A stretch of DNA of 64,000 bases from Escherichia coli (GTDB lineage: Bacteria > Pseudomonadota > Gammaproteobacteria > Enterobacterales > Enterobacteriaceae), in assembly GCF_013122565.1 (NCBI RefSeq), contig NZ_CP053258.1. One strand, written 5' to 3'. Both the position numbers and the translations under genes were made by a program. Positions 56,692 through 59,335 of the stretch are shown here, one piece after another; positions within the stretch are counted from its first letter, which is position 1; the number at the start of each line of letters is the position of its first letter. Below the pieces are notes generated by a model that worked only from the letters and a program-made list of their open reading frames with translations, ran no database searches and was not told the DNA's origin.

Positions 56692-57450
56692 TTACTCCGT
56701 ACGGCGGGCAACAATAAAAAGACGCGGAAATGCCAGCAGTATCTGTCCGTTCTCTTGCAGTGGATACTGCTCTTCCAGCATCTGATGGTAGCGCGTAAGA
56801 AAAAGCTGCTGTTCGCTCTCGGTCAGATCCTGTAACCACGGACGTAATCCAGTGGCGGTCACCCAATCGATAATCGCCTGGTGCGACGGCATCTGGTGAT
56901 AGTAGGTGGTTCGCCAGATATCGACCTCACATCCGGCTTCGCTCAAAATATCGTAGTAAGCATGAACGCCAGCCAACGGCTCACGCCCGCGATCCGGGTA
57001 GTTTTGTTCCCAGGCAACTTCGCGCATGAGCACATGGGTCGGCTCCAGCCAGTTATCTGGCATCTGTACTGCCAGCACGCCCTGCGGATTAAGTAAAGAA
57101 ACCAAGTGAGGAAACAATTCGTAGTGGTCGGGCAGCCATTGCAGTGAGGCATTAGCAAAAATCAGATCGAGTGCCTGTTCCGGTTGCCAGTTGCGGATGT
57201 CTGCTTCCACGAACTGGCAGTCTGGCAAAGCACTGCGCGCTTCAGCAATCATCGCCGGAGACGAGTCGATGCCTGTTATCCTGGCCGCAGGCCAACGTTG
57301 ATGCAGCAGGGCGGTGCTGTTACCTGGGCCACAGCCAAGATCGGCAACGTATTTGATATTCTCCAGCGGCACTCTGGCAAGCAGCTCCACCGCCGGACGC
57401 GATCGTTCAGCGGCAAAGTGCAGATATAAAGAGGGGTTCCAGTCAGACAT
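56692..57450 (-). CDS. tam: Trans-aconitate 2-methyltransferase
   Basis: 252 aa; SAM-binding [10 protein letters not shown] motif. Confidence 0.9.
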
Positions 57451-57499
57451 TTATTTACTCCCGTCAGCGCGTTACCCCAATTGTAGATAAAACTGTTGA

Positions 57500-59240
57500 C
57501 ATCCTCCACGCCCTGAATGACGAGGATCCTGCTACGTTCAGGCTGTCGCCTGAATCATTTCGGTGGGTTCCTGCTTCAACGGGCGGCCTGACTGCACCAT
57601 CCCTCCACAGGCAAGAACGGCGTACCCCGCCGCTAAAATGTTACGAGCGCCGTTTACATCGGCGTTCGCTGTATATCCACATACCTGGCATCTGAATTTA
57701 CTTTGTGACAGGCGATTTTCTTTCGTTGTATGACCACAGCACGCGCAACGCTGGCTTGTGTACGCTGGCGGAACAGCAAGCACCTGACCGCCACACCAGA
57801 GCTGCTTGTACTCAAGCTGGCGACGCATTTCATACCAGCCCTGATCCAGTATCGAACGGTTTAAACCTGATTTTGCCCGGACATTGCGCCCCGGCTGGCT
57901 GACCGTACCCGCTGCTGACTTTGACATGTTGCTGACCTTCAAATCCTCAATGACTATCATTGCGTGGTTTTTGCTGACGGTCGTTGTGACTTTGTGAAGG
58001 TAGTCCCTGCGGATATTTGCGATACGGGAATGCAGTCGCTGTATTTTGCGTTTCTGCTTCTGCCAGTTGTTGCTGAATTTGACCTTGCGGCTTAACTGTC
58101 GCTGAAGTCTCGCCAGCTTCTTCTGGTTTTTCTGAAAACTGTTTACAGGCTCAAAGACTGTGCCATCTGACAGCGTGGCGAGTTTAGCCACGCCAGCATC
58201 CAGCCCGATCATTGATGCTGAAGGGTGAACCGGAGTGGATACTTCACTTTCTGTCTGAATACTGATGTGCCACTTACCGCAGGACTGGCTGACCGTGACA
58301 TTTTTCACAACACCCGTGACCTGACGGCTATTCCGGTAGCGCATCCAGCCCAGTTTCGGCAGAAAAATACGGCTGTTTTCCTGATCGAGCTTAACGCCCT
58401 GCGGGTAGCGGAATGCATCATTCTGTCCCCGCTTTTTGAATCGGGGAAAAGCAGCCCGCTTCCGGAAGAAGTTTTTGTAAGCCCACTCAAGGTCTTTCAG
58501 TGACTGTTGCAATGGCTGTGACGGGGCATCTTTAAGCCATTGCGTTTCAGTGGCATTTTTCCACTCAACCAGCCAGGAAGCCATTTTCCCGTAAGGGATG
58601 TATTTATTACCGGCCTCATGATTCTCATTCTGACGTGCCAGAGCACGATTGAAAACGAAACGACATGCGCCTGCGAAGCGCCTCATTTCACGCTCCTGTT
58701 GACCACCGGGTCTTAACTGGAATTTAAATGCCTGTAGTCGTTTCACAGGTCAAATGATATTTTGGTCTGTGAAAAAAGAAACCGATATCCGGCGTGGAAG
58801 GCATTGTGTTTTCCTGAAGCATGTTCACATGGTCTTTGTCACCAAATACCGACGCCAGATTTTTGACCATGACGCGACAGAAAAACTACGCACTTACTTT
58901 TCAAATGTATGTGCTGATTTTGAAGCTGAACTGGTTGAAATGGATGGCGAACCAGATCACGTCCATTTGTTAATTAACTATCCTCCCAAACTGGCGATAT
59001 CCAGTCTGGTAAACAGCCTCAAAAGCGTATCGGGTAGGTTACTGCGACGAGATCGACCAGATATTGCAGCCAGGTATTACTACAAAGGCGTTTTGTGGAG
59101 TCCTGGCTATTTTGCCAGTAGCTGCGGAGGTACGCCAATATCCGTCATCCGCCAATACATTGAACAACAGCAAACACCTGGTCAGGTGGAAAACCACACC
59201 TTATATCCCCGCCCTGAAGGACGGGGTTTTACGGCGCACC
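57500..59240. mobile_element. IS200/IS605-family insertion sequence (IS609-like), about 1.7 kb, with tnpA and tnpB
   Basis: TnpB and Y1 TnpA ORFs fill the gap between tam and lsrG; similar imperfect palindromes near both ends (57506-57525 and 59207-59226). Ends approximate. Confidence 0.6.
57538..58746 (-). CDS. tnpB: TnpB (IS200/IS605 OrfB; RuvC-like RNA-guided endonuclease family)
   Basis: 402 aa, GTG start; RuvC-I GLDAG, RuvC-II IEDL, RuvC-III NADVNGA and CxxC...CxxC zinc finger present; starts [18 protein letters not shown] as recalled for E. coli InsQ. Confidence 0.9.
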
Positions 59241-59335
59241 GGATAAATTCGCCTCACGGCATCAACCCATTGAACAGACGCTTTTTACGCGGCCCGGTCA
59301 TTAAAGATTCCAGTTTCGCGACACAGGTTTTGTAG
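58754..59335 (+). CDS. tnpA: IS200-type Y1 (HuH) transposase TnpA; ORF as read extends past the expected C-terminus
   Basis: HVHLL HuH motif and conserved YY/GYF tyrosines; canonical proteins are about 150 aa, so the true end is probably near 59210-59240; the rest is read-through overlapping lsrG. Confidence 0.8.

Follow-up and report, generated by a model that had tools for sequence, protein, structure and literature searches.

At the locus considered here, the intergenic space between lsrG and tam of Escherichia coli, two divergent open reading frames (ORFs), tnpB and tnpA, sit between the lsrG stop codon (59254-59256) and the tam start codon, which ends at position 57450 of the 64-kb stretch of DNA that was analysed (the window). 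The question raised by this arrangement is whether the 3' end of tnpB also encodes a guide RNA (omega RNA, or right-end RNA) for the TnpB protein. A preliminary description of the window had proposed such an RNA, reading from inside tnpB through the end of the mobile element, and pointed to two palindromes close to the tnpB stop codon.

We consider it very probable (roughly 85%) that positions 57480-57633 of the minus strand encode the omega RNA of an IS609-type TnpB, belonging to an element inserted between lsrG and tam. The predicted RNA lies on the tnpB strand and overlaps both the 3' end of the gene and the right end (RE) of the element; the TnpB protein is intact; conservation among relatives ends at the RE; the helices covary; and the empty site consists of a target-adjacent motif (TAM) followed by the guide sequence.

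A conserved and covarying structure at the 3' end of tnpB

Both palindromes are present at the positions given for them. The perfect one, TTCAGGC-TGTC-GCCTGAA (57537-57554), extends across the tnpB stop codon, which reads TGA on the minus strand (57538-57540); the imperfect one, ATCCTC (57501-57506) with GAGGAT (57522-57527), is located between this stop codon and tam. Palindromes alone are insufficient to claim a guide RNA. The window contains 9 perfect hairpins with 7-bp stem and 4-nt loop, against about 3.8 in shuffled sequences, and 34 hairpins with 6-bp stem and 15-nt loop, against about 15. Hairpins of both sizes thus occur at about twice the shuffle expectation and are far from unique. 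It is position and conservation that give the two palindromes their meaning.

To estimate conservation, relatives were gathered from a 50%-cluster protein search and from a scan that covered one genome of each species, together with an aligned set of 24 TnpB proteins. A word-indexed protein search gave only near-identical E. coli proteins, which are of no use for covariation. In total, 80 loci encoding TnpB relatives were collected, 58-85% identical and mostly from Proteobacteria. In 60 deduplicated relatives, a strict GG..GA.GTCAA motif is found downstream of tnpB and is followed by unrelated DNA, conservation stopping at this point.

A structure of 37 base pairs arranged in four main helices was specified by hand, and the sequences were re-extracted using anchors. 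When 37 sequences are aligned with plain MAFFT, pairing is seen in 91.8% of pair cells, compared with 77.3% in shuffled alignments and 39-48% when the partners are slid. Both sides have changed in 26 of the 37 pairs, and none of 500 shuffles attains any of the observed measures. The covariance model built from this alignment (R1) matches the window at 57496-57646 on the minus strand with 144.4 bits. It also matches 79 of the 80 relative loci, on the tnpB strand and with 81-169 bits, the coordinates placing the match at the 3' end of tnpB (exception: L075). When the sequences are fitted to the model (83 distinct sequences), 92.8% of pair cells are paired, compared with 76.0% after shuffling and about 45% after sliding; compensatory changes are seen in 28 of the 37 pairs, and the covariation score is 0.407 vs 0.139. 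The model-fitted alignment leans to the structure, a bias of which the MAFFT alignment is free. RNAalifold, applied to a fixed-length MAFFT alignment, recovered helices 3 and 4 only, because insertion-bearing sequences had lost their 5' ends. Insertions 25-40 nt long, situated in the helix-4 loop or in helix 2, occur at six loci (L027, L044, L051, L054, L061 and L064), and the model still matches there.

The predicted scaffold, supported by the R1 match and by covariation, is 138 nt long (57496-57633, minus strand), and 93 nt of it overlap the last 31 codons of tnpB. Helix 1 (57617-57633) has 5 bp, three of them with compensatory changes, and its loop contains one strand of a candidate pseudoknot. 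Helix 2 (57570-57611) consists of an outer stem CCUGU/GCAGG, conserved GGAG and UGAAG internal-loop blocks reminiscent of RAGATH-18, and an inner stem (57581-57603) in which 5 of 6 pairs show compensatory changes. Helix 3 (57528-57563) is composed of closing CC/GG pairs and a hairpin (57534-57558), all 10 pairs of which have compensatory changes. It holds the UGA stop codon of tnpB, and the perfect palindrome forms its distal part. Helix 4 (57505-57526), with compensatory changes in 9 of 9 pairs and a UUCA loop (consensus UUUA), is the RE subterminal hairpin; in DNA, it is the presumed binding site of TnpA. The scaffold ends with a 3' tail, GGAUGUCAA (57496-57504), which is essentially invariant in the clade. 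The RE cleavage point lies after ...TCAA, and more than 60 relatives have the junction in this position.

The imperfect palindrome of the preliminary description does overlap the RE subterminal hairpin. Its register, in contrast, is shifted by 3 nt from the pairing conserved throughout the family, TCC[T]CGTC.../...GGGCG[T]GGA (57505-57526), and pairing of ATCCTC with GAGGAT would consume part of the 3' tail. In ISDra2, an analogous predicted pairing proved to be replaced by a pseudoknot (PMC10097598). In the scaffold described here, the helix-1 loop GGU (57624-57626; family consensus GAC) is complementary to GUC of the tail (57498-57500), and a pseudoknot between the two is, judging from the alignments, likely but unproven. 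The candidate pairing G-R-Y/GUC is found in 99.1% of cells. Because the tail is invariant, this pairing is inseparable from composition, and 124 of 500 shuffles equal it. The middle base of the loop corresponds to the third position of a four-fold degenerate Gly codon. Despite this freedom, it shows wobble-compatible changes only, all 86 sequences having A or G there.

Could the palindromes function at the DNA level only? The RE hairpin would then be the TnpA site of an element that transposes as a single strand by 'peel and paste', the palindrome at the stop codon would be incidental or a terminator, and there would be no functional guide RNA. As TnpA recognition would predict, helix 4 directly repeats the hairpin at the left end (LE) of the element, and palindromes of such size are common in the window. 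Helix-4 covariation could equally stem from a DNA hairpin, because helix 4 coincides with the RE hairpin, the single-stranded DNA form of which TnpA would bind. The remaining helices do not fit this explanation. Helices 1-3 covary at 30-138 nt from the RE end, well past the region that TnpA requires, as established for IS608 and ISDra2, and helices 1 and 2 lie at 70-138 nt, inside the tnpB coding region. Helix 1 is preserved through paired amino-acid changes (GCGGC/GCCGU, GAGCG/CGCUU, GGGCG/CGCCC). Synonymous positions in the tnpB stretch that forms the helices are invariant in the 37 sequences, namely T40, A43, A79 and C82, the last bases of Cys UGU, Gly GGA, Glu GAA and Pro CCC codons. The palindrome at the stop codon is not followed by a T-run, and no terminator was called there in a promoter/terminator scan; its interpretation as a terminator was thus dropped. 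We regard an exclusively DNA-level role of the palindromes as highly improbable. The R1 match, the covarying helices within the gene and the conservation that stops at the element end all favour a guide RNA that reads from inside tnpB through this end, as the preliminary description had predicted.

Ends of the element, target motif and predicted guide

The neighbourhood corresponds to the E. coli region lsrF-lsrG / tam-yneE-uxaB. Its genes lsrF, lsrG and tam are encoded by the minus strand, yneE and uxaB by the plus strand. The tnpB and tnpA pair at this locus we take to be the K-12 element IS609 (insQ/tnpB with tnpA). In other genomes, the same pair is labelled 'RNA-guided endonuclease InsQ/TnpB' and 'IS200/IS605 family transposase' in RefSeq.

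The ends of the element were mapped by comparison with empty sites and with copies inserted elsewhere. In empty sites, where lsrG adjoins tam, the plus strand reads ...CCCCAATTGTAGATAAAA[T/C]TGATAAATTCGCC... (L004, L005 and L001, the last being strain ATCC 25922). The occupied plus strand of the window is ...AAAACTG^TTGACATCC......GCGCACCGG^ATAAATTCGCC, carets marking the junctions. Seen on the tnpB strand, the empty allele AATTTAT^CAGTTTTATC thus corresponds to occupied ...TTAT^CCGGTGCGCC...GGAGGATGTCAA^CAGTTTTATC. One ambiguous junction base was settled by copies at six other E. coli sites (ydcO, a DUF3251 gene, yedK, a DUF1869 gene, yfeD-gltX and hslO-yhgE), which put the RE end, ...GGAGGATGTCAA^, at 57496. 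All copies with both ends covered have the form flank-TTAT^CCGGTGCGCC...GGAGGATGTCAA^flank on the tnpB strand, and their flanks past the RE are mutually unrelated. The sequence ...GGAGGATGTCAA^ is therefore followed by unrelated DNA at seven E. coli sites. The preliminary description had expected the terminus near 57500 and had named a terminus far from there as a refutation; the mapped end lies close by.

The element so delimited is 1,748 bp long and occupies 57496-59243, with the LE at 59243 and the RE at 57496 in the orientation of tnpB (minus strand). Directly 5' of the LE lies the target motif TTAT (59244-59247, minus strand; ATAA on the plus strand), which serves as the presumptive TAM and is found at 7 of 7 E. 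coli insertion sites and in several relatives. The LE subterminal hairpin, CCCCGTCCTTCAGGGCGGGG (59207-59226, minus strand), was detected by site comparison and repeat search and also gives weak covariance-model and Rfam matches. The RE and LE hairpins (57505-57525 and 59206-59226) form a direct repeat, 86% identical. Comparison of empty and occupied sites revealed no target duplication, and the element has no terminal inverted repeats. Since absence of target duplication and subterminal hairpins in direct orientation are hallmarks of the IS200/IS605 family, the element is assigned to this family as IS609-like; its TnpA is of the Y1/HUH type and it is inserted 3' of a short motif.

Among relatives (L013-L091), the motif 5' of the LE varies between TTAT, TTAC, TTGAT and TTGAC. 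As judged by eye, it seems to follow the sequence that directly adjoins the LE hairpin on its 3' side (ATATAAGG or ATGTAAGC, ATGGATAG, TCAAGAGC, AAGGATAG). The target of IS608 is recognised by DNA-DNA contacts, and by analogy the link seen here would fit target recognition of the IS608 type. At six further loci (L028, L030, L069, L073, L081 and L087), LE and RE hairpins are spaced by only about 1,330-1,360 bp, which is too short for a full tnpA, and the full scaffold is kept.

The first 16 nt past the mapped RE end constitute the predicted guide, CAGUUUUAUCUACAAU (57480-57495, minus strand; CAGTTTTATCTACAAT in DNA), the length being taken from ISDra2 (PMC10097598). The guide falls in the 5' flank of tam, as the preliminary description had anticipated; the RNA itself had been extended to about 57470, whereas a guide of 16 nt would end at 57480. 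The unoccupied allele of ATCC 25922 reads TTAT followed by exactly CAGTTTTATCTACAAT. In this strain, no lsrG is annotated beside tam (the next annotated gene is hipB). Sequence that matches the 3' end of lsrG remains, and the strain therefore still has TTAT and a target matching the guide. The empty sites L004 and L005 carry A instead of G at guide position 3 (common allele CAATTTTATC...). Elsewhere in the window, the guide has no exact match.

By analogy with ISDra2 and other characterised TnpB systems, the scaffold would be excised from the tnpB transcript together with about 16 nt of tam flank (CAGUUUUAUCUACAAU) serving as guide, and would bind TnpB. The complex would be expected to cleave DNA that reads TTAT plus the guide sequence, that is, either the empty site left after excision or an unoccupied allele. 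Repair of the break from an occupied copy would then lead to retention of the element. Where the element is inserted, the sequence in front of the guide match is GTCAA instead of TTAT, and by the logic established for TnpB this donor copy would be spared. Helix 4 may have a second role as the DNA hairpin recognised by TnpA.

Integrity of the copy between lsrG and tam

The tnpB gene (57538-58746, minus strand) encodes an intact InsQ/TnpB protein of 402 amino acids. The product scores 382.7 bits against the NCBIfam model 'RNA-guided endonuclease TnpB family protein' (guided_TnpB; cut-off 100), and its residues 3-373 match the ISDra2 TnpB structures 8bf8/8ex9/8exa and 8h1j (E = 2e-57). RuvC residues D183, E267 and D363 as well as zinc-finger cysteines C334/C337/C353/C356 are all kept.

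The divergently oriented tnpA (58754-59335, plus strand) is a 193-aa ORF for a Y1/HUH transposase, which matches NF033573 with 143 bits (cut-off 55; residues 13-138). The catalytic core is complete (profile residues 2-126). Within the element, this ORF meets no stop codon; it reads through the LE hairpin and continues 92 nt into the flank, reaching lsrG (59179-59335). This is due to a codon that is CAG in this and most E. coli copies; copy L008 has TAG instead (CCTGGTTAGGTG), resulting in a 143-aa TnpA. RefSeq flags tnpA copies lacking the in-element stop as pseudogenes 'missing C-terminus'. The start codons of tnpB and tnpA are separated by a 7-nt gap, which is covered by a 14-nt inverted repeat, TTTCACAGGTCAAA / TTTGGTCTGTGAAA (58741-58774; 86% complementary, 6-nt spacing). 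This repeat could be a regulatory site common to both genes.

Besides the ambiguous origin of helix-4 covariation, several observations weigh against the proposed omega RNA. The minimum-free-energy fold of a 221-nt stretch has z = -1.6, which is uninformative, and its thermodynamic stability is unremarkable. The promoter/terminator scan called no sigma-70-like promoter on the minus strand, including the inside of tnpB. At gathering thresholds, Rfam yields no family at this RNA, whether in the window or in the 20 relatives searched. Further, the copy in the window has peculiarities of its own. The near-invariant linker AGG(R)AUCC is one base short at 57527/57528 (the canonical IS609 linker is AGGGAUCC). 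Helix 4 contains a U-U mismatch (57523/57508) and an A-G mismatch (57518/57513), and position 57624 of the candidate pseudoknot is U, while other E. coli copies have C. The R1 score of 144.4 bits is 7-19 bits lower than those of the other E. coli copies searched (151-164 bits). The exact 80-nt RE variant with the deletion (57496-57575) was found in 28 records, with coordinates that coincide with junction matches among the matches listed; the next-best matches have the extra base. The 1-nt scaffold deletion therefore appears private to the lsrG-tam insertion. Because the RE variant is present in 28 records and the junction in 31 genomes, there is no demonstrated further mobility of the deletion variant.

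These peculiarities raise the possibility that the scaffold is genuine and has become a decaying relic, the private deletion and the mismatches disabling its folding or TnpB binding in an element that is fixed and inert. The low R1 score relative to other E. coli copies is what would be expected of such a relic, as are the confinement of the variant to 28 records and of the junction to 31 genomes, and the loss of the in-element stop of tnpA. Only 2 of 59 sequences, moreover, depart from the linker in which the deletion falls. On the contrary, the tnpB ORF and its catalytic residues are intact, every helix is still able to form, and the remaining changes are wobble-compatible or single mismatches. 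We consider a decayed, inert scaffold quite unlikely.

A near-full copy of the element is present in 4,309 of 5,426 complete E. coli genomes (about 80%). At the lsrG-tam site, the insertion is a low-frequency polymorphism, its RE-tam junction occurring in 31 of the 5,426 complete genomes. Strains with this insertion include Combat11I9, EC1515 and LHM10-1, and the hosts include human, pig, pigeon, baboon, cattle and poultry. The window departs from strain Combat11I9 at 19 of about 350 tam positions and at only 14 of the 1,748 positions of the insertion sequence, which suggests recombination around the insertion.

Relation to known guide RNAs

When Rfam was searched in E-value mode, two families were detected at this RNA, both below their gathering scores. 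HgcC (RF00062) matches end to end at 57483-57605 on the minus strand (23.6 bits, E = 0.014; gathering score 50), and RAGATH-18 (RF03064) matches at 57568-57611 on the same strand (28.1 bits, E = 0.023; gathering score 44.9). Both families have been tied to 3' ends of tnpB (PMC4615843; PMC11061315). HgcC possesses the RE-like tetraloop of sense-overlapping tnpB transcripts (PMC4615843). Guide RNAs of IS607 TnpB have RAGATH-18 as their core, and it has been reported only with IS607 TnpB (PMC11061315). RNA-seq data of E. coli K12 likewise contain sense-overlapping transcripts at tnpB 3' ends (PMC4615843), and we infer that they come from the K-12 IS609 copy. A TnpB labelled IS609 is among nine purified TnpB proteins (PMC12781874). 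Our literature searches on insQ with guide RNA or sRNA returned no report.

One might go further and propose that the IS609-clade omega RNA of Proteobacteria represents a distinct scaffold type, combining an ISDra2-like core, a RAGATH-18-like kink-turn helix and a pseudoknot strand in the helix-1 loop, and that the omega-RNA transcript, by read-through, could be the main source of tam transcription. Read-through into tam is conceivable because tnpB points in the same direction as the lsr operon and tam. We hold this extended proposal to be rather unlikely.

The clade has had no curated RNA model, and our analysis provides a covariation-supported structure and a covariance model for IS609 relatives. 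For a TnpB that is endogenous to E. coli, it also offers a concrete TAM/guide pair that can be put to the test, TTAT + CAGTTTTATCTACAAT. Since the element is carried by about 80% of complete E. coli genomes, IS609 guide RNAs would be a widespread unannotated feature. The case further illustrates that a first-stage reading of nothing but the sequence can locate a TnpB guide RNA with an error of only a few bases. The current picture of how TnpB systems work is left unchanged.

Among characterised systems, the closest parallel is offered by the TnpB-omega RNA complex of ISDra2 from Deinococcus radiodurans (8exa, 8h1j; PMC10097598). The proteins are homologous over their full length (E = 2e-57). 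In both, the RNA derives from the tnpB 3' end and the RE, the guide is the flank past the RE, and the TAM equals the target motif at the LE. Both RNAs have nested helices, a UUUA-type tetraloop hairpin adjoining the guide and a tail ending with ...CAA, in which bases -5 to -3 (GUC) can pair with an upstream hairpin loop (PMC10097598). They differ in TAM (TTAT here, TTGAT in ISDra2) and in gene order, tnpA and tnpB being divergent here. The scaffold of 138 nt, if helix 1 is required, exceeds the 116-nt core of ISDra2 and contains an additional RAGATH-18-like helix, and its pseudoknot is an inferred one.

Similarity to the guide RNA of IS607 TnpB (ISFba1; PMC11061315) concerns helix 2, which fits the RAGATH-18 consensus CCUGUGGAG...GAUGAAGCAGGAA at both ends. 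In contrast, the match remains below the Rfam gathering score (28.1 vs 44.9), and the TnpA encoded here is Y1 (IS200-type) and not a serine recombinase. The sense-overlapping transcripts (sotRNAs) and HgcC at archaeal tnpB 3' ends (PMC4615843) resemble the predicted RNA in sense orientation, in overlap with the tnpB 3' end and in having an RE-like UUCA tetraloop hairpin. Here too, the match is sub-threshold (23.6 vs 50 bits), and the description of those RNAs predates the discovery of the guide function.

Finally, the K-12 IS609 (insQ/tnpB beside ydcO) is the same element, with 97-98% DNA identity, identical LE/RE junctions and the TTAT target. It differs in insertion site and guide, while the copy in the window has the 1-nt scaffold deletion and the hairpin mismatches. 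This kind of system is well established, and the lsrG-tam locus adds one more copy, slightly aberrant, to those of a known element with a known kind of guide RNA.

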